The notes under the pieces were generated by a model, which was given only the letters and a program-made list of their open reading frames with translations, did no database searches and was not told where the DNA came from. A DNA stretch of 24,000 nucleotides. It comes from an uncultured Actinomycetota bacterium. GTDB taxonomy: Bacteria > Actinomycetota > Actinomycetes > Actinomycetales > Dermatophilaceae. This document shows, one piece after another, positions 6,884 through 12,944 of the stretch; positions within the stretch are counted from its first letter, which is position 1, and each line of letters begins with the position of its first letter. A program made the translations under genes and the position numbers. Where the stretch lies: the NCBI GenBank assembly GCA_963783735.1, contig CAWAOO010000001.1:326295-350294 (forward strand), read 5' to 3'.

Positions 6884-8793
6884 CGCCGGCCGCTCCCGGC
6901 CCGCGACCCGGGGCCTCGTCCGGCGGCGTCGGCCGGATCGCCGCCGACGCCAAGCGGGCGCGCGAGGTCGTCGCCGCCGCCCGGACCGACCCCGAGCTCC
7001 GCCGCGAGCTCCCGGCCCGGGTCCGCCGCAACCTCGCCCACCGCGTCCCCCGCCGCCGGGTCCGGACCCGGCGCGCGCTGCCCGACGTCCCCGTGCCCGA
7101 CGGGCCGGTCGCCCGCCCCGACCTCACCGTTGCCGTCATCCTCGACCCGTTCTCCGAGCTCGCGTTCCGCTACGAGTGGGACCAGCTCGCCCTCCTGCCC
7201 GGGGGGCGGTGGCGGGTCCAGGCCGGGGACGCGGCGCCGGACCTCCTCTTCGTCGAGTCGGCCTGGCAGGGCAACGGCGGCGCGTGGCGGCTGGCGATGT
7301 CGACCGAGGACGGGCCGAGCGAGGAGCTGCGCGAGCTCGTCGCCTGGTTCCGCGACCGCGGCGTCCCGACGGTGTTCTGGAACAAGGAGGACCCGCCGAA
7401 CTACGACCGGTTCCTCGAGACGGCGAGGCTCTTCGACCACGTCTTCACGGTCGACGCCGAGCGGCTCCCCGCCTACCGCGCCGACCTCGGGCACGACCGG
7501 GTCGCGCTCCTGCCGTTCGCGGCGCAGCCGCGGATCCACACCCCCGTCCGCCGCGGGCCGGGCCGGGCCTACGACGTCGCGTTCGCCGGGACGTACTTCG
7601 CCGAGAAGCACCCCGAGCGGCGCGCGCAGATGGACTACCTCCTCGCCGGGTCGAAGGACCTCGGGCTCGACATCTACTCGCGGCTGCAGACCGACGACGC
7701 GCGGTACCGCTTCCCGCGGGAGTACCGGCGCCACATCGTCGGGTCGCTGCCGTACGAGCAGATGCTCGGGGCGTACACGTCGTACAAGGTCTTCCTCAAC
7801 GTCAACAGCGTCACGGGGTCGCCGACGATGTGCTCCCGGCGGCTCTTCGAGCTCTCGGCCGCGGAGACGGCGGTCGTCACCGCTCCCGCGGCGGCGGTCG
7901 AGCCGTTCTTCGGGGACGACCTCACCGTCGTCCACGACACCGAGTCGGCGCGCCTTGCCATCGGCGCGCTCGTCGGGCAGGCCGAGCTGCGCGACCGGAC
8001 CGCGCTCAGGGCCCGGCAGCGGGTCCACCGCGAGCACCTCTACCGGCACCGGGTCGACGCGGTCCTCCGCACGGCCGGGCTCCCCGTCCACGAGCCGGAC
8101 CGGTCGGTCTCCGCGGTCGTCCCGACGATGCGCCCCGGACAGGTCGACCACGTCGTCGACTTCCTCGGTGGCCAGGCCCACGGCGACATCGAGCTCGTCC
8201 TCGTCACCCACGGGTTCGAGGTCGACGAGCGGGACCTGCGCGCCCGGGCCGCCGACGCGGGCCTGGAGCGGGTCGTCGTCGTCCCCGCCGCGCCCGACCT
8301 CACCCTCGGCGCGTGCATGAACCTCGGAGTCGTCGCCTCCTCGGGCCGGTACGTCGCGAAGATGGACGACGACAACTCCTACGCCGCGAACTACCTCGCC
8401 GACCTCCTCGCGGTCTTCGACTACACCGAGGCCGCGGTGGCCGGGAAGTGGGCGCACTACGTCCACCTCGCCGCGAGCGACGCGACCCTCCTGAGGTTCG
8501 CCCACGCCGAGCACCGCTACGTCGACCTCGTCCAGGGCGGGACGCTGCTCACCGAGCGCGCGACGGTGACCCGGACCCCGTTCGAGGACGTGCCCCGCCG
8601 GGTCGACACGACGTTCCTCGAGAACGTCCGGCGGCAGGGGGGCCGGGTCTACTCCGCGGACCGGTTCAACTTCGTCTCCCGGCGGGCGGCGACGACGGCC
8701 GGGCACACGTGGGGCGTCACCGACCAGGAGCTGCTCACCCGGTCCTCCGACCTGCGCTTCTACGGCGACCCGCTCCACCACGTCACCGTCTGA
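6880..8793 (+). CDS. Two-domain glycosyltransferase: N-terminal CgeB-like (Glyco_trans_1_2-type) domain plus C-terminal GT2-like domain
   Basis: The GTG at 6880 overlaps the wecB TGA (GTGA). N-terminal half: DLLFVESAWQGNGGAW, VPTVFWNKEDPPNYDRF, FLNVNSVTGSPTMCSRRLFELSAAETAVVT (CgeB/YkvP-like). C-terminal half: VSAVVPTMRPGQ..., LGACMNLGVVASSGRYVAKMDDDNSY (GT2 DxD region). Confidence 0.75.
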   Translation: MTPAAPGPRPGASSGGVGRIAADAKRAREVVAAARTDPELRRELPARVRRNLAHRVPRRRVRTRRALPDVPVPDGPVARPDLTVAVILDPFSELAFRYEWDQLALLPGGRWRVQAGDAAPDLLFVESAWQGNGGAWRLAMSTEDGPSEELRELVAWFRDRGVPTVFWNKEDPPNYDRFLETARLFDHVFTVDAERLPAYRADLGHDRVALLPFAAQPRIHTPVRRGPGRAYDVAFAGTYFAEKHPERRAQMDYLLAGSKDLGLDIYSRLQTDDARYRFPREYRRHIVGSLPYEQMLGAYTSYKVFLNVNSVTGSPTMCSRRLFELSAAETAVVTAPAAAVEPFFGDDLTVVHDTESARLAIGALVGQAELRDRTALRARQRVHREHLYRHRVDAVLRTAGLPVHEPDRSVSAVVPTMRPGQVDHVVDFLGGQAHGDIELVLVTHGFEVDERDLRARAADAGLERVVVVPAAPDLTLGACMNLGVVASSGRYVAKMDDDNSYAANYLADLLAVFDYTEAAVAGKWAHYVHLAASDATLLRFAHAEHRYVDLVQGGTLLTERATVTRTPFEDVPRRVDTTFLENVRRQGGRVYSADRFNFVSRRAATTAGHTWGVTDQELLTRSSDLRFYGDPLHHVTV

Positions 8794-8872
8794 CGGCGCC
8801 CGGGTGCCGCCGGAGTGGCCGCCGCGCCGGGGATGCCGGAGTGGATGGCGGGCGGGCGGGTAAGAACGGGGC

Positions 8873-9988
8873 ATGATCGGGTCCATGACAACGGCCAACC
8901 GGACCGGTGGCGCCCGGGAGCGGCGCCCGGCGCCCGAGCCGGTCCTCCTCGAACCGGCCGGCGACGCTGGCCGGCTCCGGGAGGCCGCCGGCGCGGCCGC
9001 CGCGGCGCGCGGGAGCACGCGCGCCGCGCTCGGCCTCGCCGGCGACGTCGGCACGTGGGCGCCCCTTCCCGGCGAGGGCCGCACCCGGCAGCTGTGGGAG
9101 CTGCTCGCCACGCTCGCCGCCGTCGACCTCACCCTCGCCCGGACCGTCGAGCCCCACCTCGACGCGCTCGCGATCCTCCACCAGTCGCGGGCCCGGGGGC
9201 TCGAGCGCGTCGGGGCCGGGAGCGACAGCGTCTGGGGGGTCTACGCGGCCGAGGGGGCCGGCGCCCGCCTCGACGCCGTGCCCCAGGCCGGCGGCTGGGT
9301 GGTCACCGGTCGGAAGCCGTGGTGCTCCCTGGCCGGAGACCTCAGCCACGCCCTCGTCACCGCCCACCTCCCCGGTGACCGGGGCCGGCAGGCCTTCGCC
9401 GTCGCCCTCCGGGGGCCGGGGGTGACCCCCGTCGGGGCGCCGTGGGCTGCCCGGGGACTCGCCGACGTCCCGAGCGGGCCGCTCGACCTCGACCGGGCCC
9501 CCGCCGTCCCCGTCGGCGGTCCGGGCTGGTACCTCACCCGTCCCGGGTTCGCGTGGGGTGGGATCGGCGTCGCCGCCTGCTGGTACGGCGGCGCCGTCGC
9601 GGTCGGGCGACGGATGCTCCGGCAGGCGGGGGAGCGCGAGCTCGACCAGGTCGGCCACATGCACCTCGGGGCCGTCGACGCCGCGCTCCACGCGGCCCGG
9701 CTCGCCCTGGGCGATGCCGCGCGCGCGGTCGACGGCGGTCGGGCCGAGGGGGCGGCGGGGGCGACCGCGGCCCTGCGGGCCCGGCACGTCGTCGCCCGCT
9801 CCGCCGAGGACGTCCTCCGCCGGGCGGCGCACGCGCTCGGCCCGGCCCCGCTCGCCCTCGAGGAGGAGCACGCCGCCCGGGTCGCCGACCTCGATCTCTA
9901 CCTGCGCCAGGAGCACGCAGAGCGGGACGAGGCCGCACTCGGCCGAGCTGTCCTGGCCGGCTCCGCATCCACCGAGGGCTCCCGATGA
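8873..9988 (+). CDS. Acyl-CoA dehydrogenase-fold flavoprotein (atypical, short N-terminal domain; function unknown)
   Basis: 371 aa with an ACAD-like middle beta-domain and C-terminal helical bundle: WVVTGRKPWCSLAGDLSHALVTA, RGLADVPSGPLDLD, WGGIGVAACWYGGAVAVGR, ...VADLDLYLRQEHAERDEAALGR. The start could instead be the ATG at 8885. The stop overlaps the next gene's start (ATGA). Confidence 0.65.
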   Translation: MIGSMTTANRTGGARERRPAPEPVLLEPAGDAGRLREAAGAAAAARGSTRAALGLAGDVGTWAPLPGEGRTRQLWELLATLAAVDLTLARTVEPHLDALAILHQSRARGLERVGAGSDSVWGVYAAEGAGARLDAVPQAGGWVVTGRKPWCSLAGDLSHALVTAHLPGDRGRQAFAVALRGPGVTPVGAPWAARGLADVPSGPLDLDRAPAVPVGGPGWYLTRPGFAWGGIGVAACWYGGAVAVGRRMLRQAGERELDQVGHMHLGAVDAALHAARLALGDAARAVDGGRAEGAAGATAALRARHVVARSAEDVLRRAAHALGPAPLALEEEHAARVADLDLYLRQEHAERDEAALGRAVLAGSASTEGSR

Positions 9989-11376
9989 CGGACCGGACGA
10001 CCGGGCCGAGGACGGAGCCGAGGTTCCGGCACGACGACCTCGGGACGCCCGAGCGGCTCTGGGCCGGGGAGCCCGCCTTCGACGGCCTCCCGCGGATCGA
10101 CCTCGGCGCCTGGCCGGGCCTGCGCCGGGTGCTCGTCGTCGCGGCCCACCCGGACGACGAGACCCTCGGCGCGGCCGGCCTCGTCCGGGCCGCCGCCGAC
10201 GCCGGCCTCGGCGTCGAGGTCGCCGCGGCGACGTCCGGCGAGGGCTCCCACCCGGGGTCCCGGACCCATGACCGTGCTCGGCTCGCACGGGTCCGCGACG
10301 TCGAGCTCGAGGCTGCCGTCGGCGTCCTCGCGCCCGCGTGCCGGGTCCACCGCCTCGGCCTCCCGGACGGCGGGCTGGCCGACCGTGAGGACGAGCTCGC
10401 CGAGCGCCTCTCCGGACTCCTCGGCGAGGGGGCGTCGACGCTTGTCGTCGCGCCGTGGCGCTCCGACGGCCACCCCGACCACGAAGCCGCTGGACGCGCC
10501 GCGGCCCGCGCGGCCCGGGACGGCGGCGCACCGCTGCTCGAGTACCCCGTGTGGCTCTGGCACTGGGGGTCCGAGGACGACGTCCCGTGGGACGACGCCG
10601 TGCGCCTCGACCTCGACCGCGACGCGCGGACGGCGAAGACGGCGGCGATCGCCGCCCACCGGAGCCAGAGCGAGGCCCTCTCGCCGGAGCCGGGCGACGA
10701 GCCGGTCCTCCTTCCGCACACCCTCGAGCACTTCGCCCGGGCGTTCGAGGTCTTCCTCGCCGGTGCGGAGGCCCGCGGCGTGGTCGCCCTCGAGGACCTC
10801 CACCGCCGCGAGCGCGACCCGTGGGGGGTCGGTGAGGGGTGGTACGAACGCCGCAAGCGGGCCCTGACGCTCGCGAGCCTCCCGCGCGAGCGGTTCGCCC
10901 GGGGCCTCGAGGTCGGCTGCTCCGTCGGGGCGCTCGCCGCCGACCTCGCGACCCGGTGCGACCGGCTCGTCGGCCTCGACGCGAGCGCCTCCGCCCTCGC
11001 CGAGGCTCGGGCCCGGGTCGGGGGCCTCGGCACGGTCGAGCTCGCCCACCTCCACGTCCCCCGGCAGTGGCCACAGGGCCGGTTCGACCTCGTCGTCCTC
11101 TCGGAGGTCGGCTACTTCTGCGAGCGCGACCAGCTCGCGGGCCTCGTCGAGCGGGCTGTCGGGTCGCTCACCGACGACGGGGTCCTGCTCGCGTGCCACT
11201 GGCGGCACCCCGTCACCGGCTGGCCGCTCGACGGGGACGAGGTCCATGCCGTCCTCGGCGGCCACCCCGGCCTCGAGGTGCTCGCCAGACACGTCGAGGA
11301 GGACTTCGCGCTCGACGTCCTCGTGCCGCCCCCGGCGACCTCGGTCGCCCGTCGCAGCGGCCTCCTCGGCGGGTGA
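9985..11376 (+). CDS. Bifunctional PIG-L/LmbE-family de-N-acetylase :: NodS-like class I SAM-dependent methyltransferase
   Basis: 463 aa. PIG-L motifs: VLVVAAHPDDETLGAAG and DGHPDHEAAGRAA. The C-terminal half reads RERDPWGVGEGWYERRKRALTLASLPRERFARGLEVGCSVGALAADLATRCDRLVGLDASASALAEARAR, i.e. SAM motif I preceded by the DPW...YE..K signature I associate with NodS-type methyltransferases. ATGA and GTGA overlaps occur at its two ends. Confidence 0.8.
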   Translation: MTDRTTGPRTEPRFRHDDLGTPERLWAGEPAFDGLPRIDLGAWPGLRRVLVVAAHPDDETLGAAGLVRAAADAGLGVEVAAATSGEGSHPGSRTHDRARLARVRDVELEAAVGVLAPACRVHRLGLPDGGLADREDELAERLSGLLGEGASTLVVAPWRSDGHPDHEAAGRAAARAARDGGAPLLEYPVWLWHWGSEDDVPWDDAVRLDLDRDARTAKTAAIAAHRSQSEALSPEPGDEPVLLPHTLEHFARAFEVFLAGAEARGVVALEDLHRRERDPWGVGEGWYERRKRALTLASLPRERFARGLEVGCSVGALAADLATRCDRLVGLDASASALAEARARVGGLGTVELAHLHVPRQWPQGRFDLVVLSEVGYFCERDQLAGLVERAVGSLTDDGVLLACHWRHPVTGWPLDGDEVHAVLGGHPGLEVLARHVEEDFALDVLVPPPATSVARRSGLLGG

Positions 11377-12122
11377 GCGCCTGCACGGCCGTCCGGGTCG
11401 TCGTCCCGGCCCGCGACGAGGAGATCCTCCTGCCGGGGTGCCTTCGGACGCTCGCCGTCGCCGTCGCCCGGCTCGCGGGGGAGGCCGCCGACGGGCCGGA
11501 CGGCCATGCCGCGCCGCTCGACGCCGGGATCGTCCTCGTCCTCGACCGGTGCACCGACCGGTCCGCCGCGGTCGCCCGCTCCGTGCCCGGCGTCGACGTC
11601 CTCGAGGTCGACGCGGGCAGCGTCGGGTCGGCGCGCGACCTTGGGGCTCGACGCGCGCTCGCCTCGTGCGCGGCGGAGCCGCGGCACGTCTGGCTCGCGA
11701 TGACCGACGCGGACTCGCAGGTGCCGGCCTCGTGGCTCACCGGCCAGCTCGACCACGCCCGCGCGGGGGCCGACCTCGTCGTCGGCACCGTCGAGCCGGA
11801 CGTCGACGTCTCCCCGCACGTCCTGGCGCGGTGGCGCGCCGCGCACGACCTCCGGGAGGGCCACCCCCACGTCCACGGAGCGAACCTCGGGATCCGGGGC
11901 GACGCCTACCTCGCCGCCGGTGGGTTCCGGGCGTGGGCGTGCGAGGAGGACGTCGACCTCGTCGCCCGGGTCACGGCCGCCGGCCGGGCGGTGGCCCGGA
12001 CCGACCGGGGACGCGTCCGGACGTCCGCGCGGCTGCTCGGCCGGGCGCCGGGCGGGTTCGCCGCCCACCTGCGACGGCTCGCCCTGCCCGAGGAGCCGAC
12101 CACCCTCGACCCGGCGACCTGA
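11373..12122 (+). CDS. Small family-2 glycosyltransferase (GT-A fold)
   Basis: 249 aa from the GTG at 11373, which overlaps the upstream TGA. Motifs: RVVVPARDEEILLPGCL, IVLVLDRCTDRS, WLAMTDADSQVP (DxD), GANLGIRGDAYLAAGGF, EDVDLV. No obvious TM segments. Confidence 0.75.
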   Translation: MSACTAVRVVVPARDEEILLPGCLRTLAVAVARLAGEAADGPDGHAAPLDAGIVLVLDRCTDRSAAVARSVPGVDVLEVDAGSVGSARDLGARRALASCAAEPRHVWLAMTDADSQVPASWLTGQLDHARAGADLVVGTVEPDVDVSPHVLARWRAAHDLREGHPHVHGANLGIRGDAYLAAGGFRAWACEEDVDLVARVTAAGRAVARTDRGRVRTSARLLGRAPGGFAAHLRRLALPEEPTTLDPAT

Positions 12123-12146: not shown

Positions 12147-12944
12147 TCAGCCGGCCAGGGAGCCGCCGAAGATCTGCCACGCGAGGACGGACTTCGCGAC
12201 GAGGCTGAGGACGAGGTAGGCCTTCTCGCCGTACGCGTAGTCGGCCCAGCGCCCGACGCCGCGGTACTGGAGCCACTGGTTGAGGCCGAAGCTGAAGAAG
12301 AAGACCGCCTGGGCGACGAGGATCCCGTAGACGAAGCCCGGCACCGTGGCCGACCCGACGATGTTGATGCCGAGCGCGACCCACGGGGCGAGCCCGACGA
12401 GGGTCCCGAACCAGAACGGGAGCATCGTCGTCGAGGACCGCCCGGGCGGGTTCATGAGCTCCTGGACCCAGCCGAAGAGGATCATCGCGACGTTGGCCCC
12501 GATGATCCCGACGACGGCGCTGATCCCGGTGATGCCGGAGTAGAACCCGATGAGGACGACCATGAGGGTCGCGCTCAGCGAGTATTCGACCCAGCGGAAC
12601 CGGTTGATCCCGCGCCGGAGGTCGCGCTCGTACACCCCGCGGCCGAACGTCGCGGTGAGGAGGTGGTCGAGGGCCGCGAGCGCGAGGAAGAGTGCGACCG
12701 CCCAGCCGATCGGGACGTCGAAGAGCGCCCCGGGGGCGGGTGGCGCCGCCCCCGGCGGGCCCTCGGGGAAGGAGGACGTCACCGTGATCGCGAAGCTCCC
12801 GGCGAGAGCGACGACGACGACCGCCTGGGCGAGGTGGAGGACGCTGAGGGCGAGGTTCCACCGGCGGAGGCCGGCGAGCCGCACGTCGGTGACGCCGGGG
12901 GCCACGAGCGGCCCGACGGACGTGCTGGCCTCAGGCGCGCTCAC
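12147..12944 (-). CDS. Heliorhodopsin (inverted-topology, retinal-binding seven-TM protein)
   Basis: 265 aa. By-eye alignment to the recalled HeR 48C12 sequence: RWNLALSVLHLAQ (His37 ~ H23), LAALDHLL (His94 ~ H80), INRFRWVEYSLSATLMVVLI (Glu120 ~ E107 counterion), NVAMILFGWVQE, MLPFWFG, VPGFVYGILV, WLQYRGVGRWADYAYGEKAYLVLSLVAKSVLAWQIFGGSL (Lys251 ~ K241 Schiff-base lysine, codon at 12192..12194). The GTG start is preceded by GAGGA with 6-nt spacing. Confidence 0.9.
   Translation of the reverse strand: MSAPEASTSVGPLVAPGVTDVRLAGLRRWNLALSVLHLAQAVVVVALAGSFAITVTSSFPEGPPGAAPPAPGALFDVPIGWAVALFLALAALDHLLTATFGRGVYERDLRRGINRFRWVEYSLSATLMVVLIGFYSGITGISAVVGIIGANVAMILFGWVQELMNPPGRSSTTMLPFWFGTLVGLAPWVALGINIVGSATVPGFVYGILVAQAVFFFSFGLNQWLQYRGVGRWADYAYGEKAYLVLSLVAKSVLAWQIFGGSLAG

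Follow-up and report, generated by a model that had tools for sequence, protein, structure and literature searches.

The 24,000-nucleotide stretch of DNA analyzed here (the window) comes from an uncultured actinobacterium of the Dermatophilaceae and carries, at positions 8873 to 12122, three overlapping genes that specify four enzymes: a flavoprotein with the acyl-CoA dehydrogenase (ACAD) fold, a PIG-L-type deacetylase fused to a NodS-like methyltransferase, and a small glycosyltransferase of family GT2. We conclude, with a probability of about 0.55, that these genes represent, in the fused state seen in actinobacteria, a widespread four-enzyme cassette that would make a stress-linked, modified amino-sugar conjugate by the pathway proposed below. 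The gene arrangement had been noticed earlier by a model that saw the letters only (the sequence-only reading); its observation of the cassette is confirmed by our results, and its interpretation is partly supported. That four enzymes have been kept together through gene shuffling and fusion points to a conserved metabolite or glycoconjugate yet to be identified. With a small, autonomous cassette, enzymes predicted to be soluble, and a methyltransferase homologue whose structure has been solved, the question is open to direct experiment.

Gene boundaries in the window, which has a G+C content of about 75%, were set by frame analysis of G+C at third codon positions (GC3). All three genes lie on the plus strand. 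P0001, the ACAD-fold flavoprotein (371 residues, 8873..9988), is supported by the GC3 frame, Pfam and an AlphaFold2 model; P0002, the fusion of a PIG-L/LmbE deacetylase and a NodS-like class I S-adenosylmethionine (SAM) methyltransferase (463 residues, 9985..11376), by the GC3 frame, Pfam and matches in the PDB; and P0003, a small GT-A glycosyltransferase of family GT2 (249 residues, 11373..12122), by the GC3 frame, Pfam and a structural model. The start of P0002 overlaps the stop of P0001 in an ATGA at 9985-9988, the start of P0003 overlaps the stop of P0002 in a GTGA at 11373-11376, and the three genes are predicted from these junctions to be translationally coupled. Both overlaps had been named in the sequence-only reading, which described three tightly coupled genes and assigned the same domains; the overlaps were read again in the sequence, the ACAD, PIG-L, methyltransferase and GT2 assignments were matched by Pfam, and the fold of P0001 was borne out by its model. 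A hydropathy scan detected no membrane segment in P0001, P0002 or P0003, and all three proteins are predicted to be soluble.

The combination of genes is found together far beyond chance, because in a synteny sample of 80 actinobacterial genome loci an ACAD-like gene lay directly upstream of the fusion in every one, and a GT2 gene was found in 78, directly downstream of the fusion in all but one. The fusion has more than 2,500 relatives, and every named one among the top 120 belongs to the Actinomycetota. A second sample covered 401 genomes of Actinomycetota, and ACAD-like matches (E at most 1e-12) were obtained in 22 of them; in 20 of the 22, the match was located no more than 300 bp from a PIG-L/methyltransferase match. 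The sequence-only reading had proposed a co-occurrence survey as a check on its grouping of the four functions, and a conserved unit was seen in both samples.

The four domains also occur as separate genes. Ten loci of the phylum carry such unfused equivalents, in at least five gene orders, and the sole paper found to show the gene set, on BLUF photoreceptors of Acinetobacter, draws it adjacent to blsA and says nothing about its function (PMC9020721, Fig. 3). The genes in that drawing are DUF2171, acyl-CoA dehydrogenase, GlcNAc-PI (N-acetylglucosamine-phosphatidylinositol) de-N-acetylase, methyltransferase, glycosyltransferase (PMC9020721). The Acinetobacter cassette thus has the same four domains as adjoining genes, whereas in the window the deacetylase and methyltransferase form one polypeptide and the order is that of the fused form in general, ACAD, fusion, GT2. 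On a quick tree of PIG-L and methyltransferase sequences, for which the fused set had been picked by similarity to the query, all 84 fused sequences fell on one side of a single branch (Shimodaira-Hasegawa-like approximate likelihood ratio test [SH-aLRT] value of 99), and the fused state needs one change, which is compatible with a single origin of the fusion. The same tree sets G165, a genome of the window's own family, beside Phycicoccus, so that the source organism is probably related to the Intrasporangiaceae/Dermatophilaceae. The fusion is also Rosetta-stone evidence that the deacetylation and methylation steps are coupled.

P0001, the flavoprotein, scored 24.6 bits with Pfam Acyl-CoA_dh_1 (cut-off 22.4) and 31.1 bits with Acyl-CoA_dh_M, just under the cut-off of 33.3. 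Its AlphaFold2 model, with a predicted local distance difference test (pLDDT) score of 87.4, has the full three-domain ACAD fold. Residues 1-30 are without secondary structure, residues 1-15 fall below a pLDDT of 50, and only residues 32-113 form the N-terminal helical domain, which is short, as had been suspected from the letters. Foldseek listed ACADs, DszC, the amino-sugar nitrososynthases KijD3 and DnmZ, and Rv3094c about equally, and the P0001-family profile matched DszC at up to 7e-7 and ACADs at up to 2e-7. P0001 shares its fold with DszC, KijD3, DnmZ and the canonical ACADs (template modeling [TM] scores of 0.70-0.75), but its identity to them is just 16-22%, it met no NCBIfam family model, and its cassette holds no reductase.

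The full fold and the many acyl-CoA dehydrogenases among the top fold matches could be taken to mean that P0001 functions as a dehydrogenase of acyl-CoA or acyl-carrier substrates, and that the cassette serves to build or modify a glycolipid carrying an unsaturated acyl chain. We consider this alternative unlikely on the basis of an alignment of the P0001 family with seven canonical ACADs encoded in the same genome, which was made with MAFFT L-INS-i since an hhalign comparison of the family with canonical ACADs ended short of the catalytic loop. The catalytic Glu of the ACAD sequence I-Y-E-G-T aligned with Q346 of the family motif L-R-Q-(E/H)-H, a Gln conserved without exception in 22 family members; the segment had been read by eye as LYLRQEH at the place of the catalytic Y-E-G, and the alignment agrees, with Gln in the Glu column. 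In P0001 a Glu, E347, adjoins the catalytic position, but position 347 varies in the family (E, D, H or W, with H in most). The alternative base position on helix G, used in IVD and LCAD, corresponds by eye to G229, a Gly that is invariant. A flavin-contact motif is retained, in that G-x-K-x-W-I-T-N corresponds to G-T-K-P-W-C-S-L in P0001 (GxKPWCS, with WITN changed to WCS); TEPxxGSD of the ACADs, however, is replaced by AEGPG, and the cassette carries neither an acyltransferase nor an acyl-CoA ligase. Judged from these residues, canonical alpha,beta-dehydrogenation by P0001 is unlikely. The ACAD-fold (group D) flavin monooxygenases, among them DszC, SfnB and the nitrososynthases KijD3 and DnmZ, are not known to keep the catalytic Glu either, and the loss of the residue in P0001 would fit this oxygenase class.

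The deacetylase domain occupies approximately residues 47-262 of P0002 (10123..10770, plus strand), as delimited by Pfam and invariant motifs. The Pfam PIG-L model (PF02585) matched residues 50-176 at 2.9e-25, with 89.7 bits (cut-off 28.2), and the metal/catalytic motifs AHPDDE (H55, D57 and D58) and DGHPDH (H163 and H166) were invariant in the 15 sequences aligned. A profile of the 15 sequences found TT1542, diacetylchitobiose deacetylase, BshB and MshB in the PDB. The domain scored below the NCBIfam equivalog cut-offs for BshB2 (62 against 195), BshB1 (52 against 182), Mca (23 against 277) and MshB (12 against 224). Among the PIG-L-fold relatives that were found are also LnmX, Mca-type amidases and 4-oxalmesaconate hydratase, and with these in mind one could envisage an amidase or hydrolase role for the PIG-L domain, with a non-sugar as its substrate; glycosylation, methylation and oxidation by the cassette would then serve to modify or detoxify a xenobiotic or secondary metabolite. 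Glycosylation and methylation are a common tailoring or inactivation set. Nevertheless, we regard this explanation as improbable: a core-like unit is kept across distant lineages, no scaffold genes (for polyketide synthases, nonribosomal peptide synthetases or similar enzymes) are nearby, and the neighbours are stress genes, not biosynthetic clusters.

The position of the cassette in the window raises another possibility. Upstream lie wall-polymer genes, encoding an ABC exporter, a UDP-sugar dehydrogenase, a GT4 enzyme, WecB and a CgeB-like::GT2 fusion, the last of which ends at 8793; downstream and convergent are genes for heliorhodopsin, OsmC, a Mo-oxidoreductase and a PSD-family protein. 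The polysaccharide genes and the cassette are co-oriented, with a gap of 79 bp between the end of the CgeB-like::GT2 fusion and 8873, and a TagGH-like ABC exporter is close by both in the window and in the closest relative, L084, a metagenome contig with 68% identity. The cassette might thus be the tail of the WecB/CgeB-GT2 operon and tailor the adjacent wall polymer, of the N-acetylmannosaminuronic acid (ManNAcA) type, to which an amino sugar would be added, deacetylated and N-methylated. Action on the adjacent wall polymer was among the proposals of the sequence-only reading, but this part was not supported, and we judge the explanation to be quite improbable. In none of the 80 loci was WecB, GT4, CgeB-GT2, UDP-sugar dehydrogenase, heliorhodopsin or OsmC found beside the cassette. 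L084 retains the ABC exporter, the cassette and OsmC in the window's order, with protein identities of 61-84%, but it is without the wall-polymer block of about 6 kb (WecB, GT4, CgeB-GT2 and UDP-sugar dehydrogenase) and without the heliorhodopsin gene, and it shares the promoter-like element of the 79-bp gap described below. Furthermore, a wall-polymer role accords poorly with the predicted solubility of the cassette proteins and with the presence of the cassette in Gram-negative bacteria as well (PMC9020721). Because the neighbours are absent from all 80 loci and L084 keeps the cassette and its promoter-like element without the wall-polymer genes, we conclude that the cassette is autonomous and separate from the adjoining cell-wall sugar genes. 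The two pieces present in the window and missing from L084, 2679-8793 (UDP-sugar dehydrogenase, GT4, WecB and CgeB-like::GT2) and 12147-12944 (heliorhodopsin), were either gained in the window or lost in L084.

The methyltransferase domain covers approximately residues 276-446 of P0002 (10810..11322, plus strand), as judged from Pfam, the PDB matches and motifs. The Pfam NodS model (PF05401) matched residues 276-407 at 5.3e-14, with 53 bits against a cut-off of 24, and Methyltransf_12, Methyltransf_25 and Methyltransf_11 scored lower, at 41, 39 and 38 bits. The best PDB match of this half with the 15-sequence profile was 4ISC (212 bits), a 164-residue entry titled 'Methyltransferase' with no function stated; P0002 alone matched it with an E value of 5.5e-44 over 160 residues, and the identity is about 55% by eye from the alignment. 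NodS (3OFJ/3OFK) was second with the family profile at 78.9 bits, and generic characterised methyltransferases reached at most 45 bits. The lid motif DPW...WYERRKR of P0002 aligns with DPW...FER of NodS; in the 15 sequences, neither SAM motif I (LEVGCSVG) nor the acidic D332 varies. These results sustain two proposals made from the letters, that the domain groups with NodS and not with Methyltransf_11/25 (NodS is both the top Pfam model and the best characterised PDB match) and that its N-terminal DPW...WYE signature is NodS-like. Likeness does not extend to orthology: because P0002 scored 52.4 bits with the NCBIfam NodS model NF041650, the equivalog cut-off of which is 300, its methyltransferase is by this measure not a NodS orthologue, and by the same family of cut-offs P0002 is not an orthologue of BshB, MshB or Mca either.

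P0003 matched Pfam Glycos_transf_2 (PF00535) at 33.4 bits (cut-off 23.3), and D58/D62, the DxD motif D112-A-D114 and E192-D193 are invariant. The matches of its model (pLDDT 93.7) in Foldseek were all GT-A enzymes and generic only, pointing to no particular donor or acceptor. A plain sequence search with P0003 against the PDB gave no match, and the nearest family models (TIGR04283, EpsD, HpnB, MftF and GpgS) were all far below cut-off. No transmembrane segment was predicted in the protein (the maximum 19-residue hydropathy is 1.55), and a QxxRW motif was not seen on inspection of its sequence. Given a length of 249 residues, no membrane helices and no QxxRW, P0003 is unlike a NodC-type processive synthase. 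The active-site motifs of the deacetylase, the methyltransferase and the GT2 are intact.

The likeness to NodS brings to mind a Nod-factor-like pathway, in which the GT2 would make a chito-oligosaccharide that is deacetylated, methylated by a NodS orthologue and N-acylated with an ACAD-desaturated fatty acid; such a pathway is scarcely credible. In its favor, no characterised methyltransferase matches that of the cassette better than NodS, and the order of steps would parallel NodC, NodB and NodS. Against it, the score with the NodS equivalog model is 52 (cut-off 300), the short GT2 has neither membrane helices nor a visible QxxRW, no locus has a NodA-type acyltransferase in the cassette, and the catalytic Glu of the ACADs is missing. 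What the cassette has in common with Nod-factor tailoring is the logic of a GT2, a de-N-acetylase and a SAM-dependent N-methyltransferase, and a closest characterised methyltransferase, NodS, whose DPW...(F/Y)ER motif aligns. It differs in that the deacetylase has the PIG-L fold, unlike NodB (CE4), in that the GT2 is small and, by prediction, soluble, unlike the membrane chitin-oligomer synthase NodC, and in having no NodA, an additional ACAD-fold protein and a methyltransferase that is not a NodS orthologue. A second group of known systems, those of mycothiol, bacillithiol and glycosylphosphatidylinositol (GPI) synthesis (MshA/MshB, BshA/BshB and PIG-A/PIG-L), shares with the cassette the logic of forming an N-acetylglucosamine (GlcNAc) glycoside and then removing the N-acetyl group with a zinc-dependent enzyme of the PIG-L fold. 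Within NCBIfam, the PIG-L domain comes closest to BshB2, BshB1 and Mca, but far below their cut-offs; the cassette has a GT2 instead of a GT4, and no Cys ligase, with a methyltransferase and a flavoprotein instead.

The best-supported mechanism, we infer, is a sequence of glycosyl transfer, deacetylation and N-methylation combined with a flavin-dependent oxidation. The cytoplasmic GT2 would transfer an N-acetylhexosamine, probably GlcNAc, from a nucleotide sugar onto an acceptor, the PIG-L domain would strip the N-acetyl group, and the NodS-like domain fused to it would methylate the freed amine. The flavoprotein would carry out a further oxidation other than acyl-CoA alpha,beta-dehydrogenation, the candidates being N-oxygenation or another flavin-dependent oxidation, and the methylation and the oxidation, as the last two steps, could occur in either order. 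The product would probably be a small modified amino-sugar conjugate for stress or stationary phase, and the operon is probably driven by its own GGGTA-type promoter, giving a leaderless mRNA. A more specific version, in which the product is a stress-protective, cytoplasmic, N-methylated and possibly N-oxygenated glucosamine glycoside, new to the literature and made by mycothiol/bacillithiol-like logic through other chemistry, with the fusion channelling the intermediate and the ACAD-fold protein acting as an amine or sugar oxygenase, is put forward tentatively, as we think it more doubtful than probable.

The assignment to stress conditions draws on the neighbouring genes. In 29 of the 80 loci, a stress-type neighbour (Dps, catalase, Ku, SDR or DUF6766) was located within 7 kb of the cassette. 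Within this distance Dps was present in 12 loci, KatE in 5, Mn-catalase in 4, Ku in 6, SDR in 7 and DUF6766 in 4; KatE and Mn-catalase together account for nine matches in eight loci. OsmC lies directly downstream of the cassette in L084, and in the window the heliorhodopsin gene intervenes between the GT2 gene and OsmC. The link of the cassette to stress genes is suggestive only, since the genomes are related.

In the 79-bp gap ahead of 8873, no Shine-Dalgarno sequence was found, and a scan for sigma-70 promoters found nothing. The gap contains a promoter-like element, inferred from the sequence, of the form GGAGTGG-N13-GGGTAA-N9-ATG(8873), at 8838..8863 on the plus strand. L084 has GAGTGG-N14-GGGTAC-N8-ATG at the same place, and there a 278-bp stretch separates the cassette from the divergently oriented ABC exporter. 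A 10-bp direct repeat, GCCGGAGTGG, is present in two copies at 8810-8819 and 8836-8845; the second copy supplies the -35-like GAGTGG, which is kept in L084 at a -35-like spacing from GGGTA, whereas the first has no counterpart in L084. Across the loci, 306 in-frame start candidates were considered for the ACAD gene, and GGGTAN was located 8-10 nt ahead of 9 of them, compared with 2 of 384 out-of-frame candidates and a background of 0.17% of all start-like codons. These observations suggest a candidate -10 box of the GGGTA type (SigB/SigF-like) that would give a leaderless mRNA in a subset of the loci.

In two loci of one genus with GT2-first order, L097 (7660-7720, minus strand) and L099 (8290-8340, minus strand), a different element was observed, consisting of GGTGTGAAAA, 12 nt and GGCTA(T/A), whose end lies 8-9 nt ahead of the GT2 start codon. 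It is a candidate for a conserved SigF-like promoter of the leaderless type. MSMEG_1097, a SigF-dependent GT2 gene of Mycobacterium smegmatis, was considered as a published regulatory link and rejected, because its neighbours are urease genes and a gene for an acyl-CoA synthase and it does not belong to a cassette.

A variant of the cassette was found in three genomes of another family of the phylum, where an ACAD-like protein, a NodS-like methyltransferase, a flavoprotein resembling ferredoxin-NAD+ reductase and a GT2 are encoded in this order (L108, 3000-7100, in genome G056; L109 in G384; L110 in G325). The reductase-like gene stands beside the ACAD-like gene, which fits a reductase-dependent oxygenase role of the ACAD-like protein. 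The 10 kb examined around these three cassettes yielded no PIG-L gene, and deacetylation is therefore not obligatory everywhere. Methyltransferase-only matches of the variant type were present in 21 of 31 sampled genomes of the same family.

Several observations weigh against a stress-linked amino-sugar pathway and must be set beside the evidence for it. The variant lineage does without PIG-L in its cassette, and the PIG-L relatives of the fused form include amidases and hydratases that act on non-sugars. The fold search ranks dehydrogenases and oxygenases equally for P0001, and there is no flavin reductase gene in the window's cassette. The fold and profile matches of P0003 (TIGR04283, EpsD, ArnC, WrtF and TarS/TarP) are generic. 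Each of the stress-gene neighbours is found in a minority of the loci, and genomes that are related do not count as independent samples. The GGGTA element is present in only about a tenth of the loci, and the full SigF-type motif, GTTT-N-GGGTA, showed no enrichment upstream of the ACAD gene (five sense against five antisense occurrences). In addition, we found no functional study or product of the gene combination in the literature, in agreement with the sequence-only reading, which knew of no assigned product. Taking these points into account, we still favor the amino-sugar conjugate at the probability given at the outset.

Two genes annotated 'PIG-L family deacetylase', PA5002 (dnpA) and PSPTO_4989, were considered as members of the cassette and rejected, both being genes of the lipopolysaccharide core. 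Light sensors adjoin the cassette twice, heliorhodopsin in the window (12147-12944) and the BLUF protein gene blsA in Acinetobacter. A link between heliorhodopsin and the cassette was nonetheless discarded; since heliorhodopsin was beside the cassette in 0 of 80 loci and is gone from L084, its adjacency in the window looks like a coincidence.

The fused proteins have shared sequences at both ends. An N-terminal motif, F-x-H-x-D-x-G-T-P-E-x-x-W, precedes the PIG-L domain (residues 14-26 of P0002) and is common to them, and a C-terminal tail, P-P-A-x-S-V-A-R-x-x-G-L, follows the methyltransferase (residues 447-461) in most of them; in the window the two motifs are encoded within 9985-10120 and 11323-11376. 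The alignment with 4ISC stops at residue 445 of P0002, leaving the tail uncovered. The motif and the tail may be docking elements. Finally, a genome of the same order as the window, G009, carries two ACAD-like fragments with 52-53% identity on contig 15 (155928-156830), and a PIG-L::methyltransferase match was obtained nowhere in that genome; the fragments may be the remnant of a decayed cassette.

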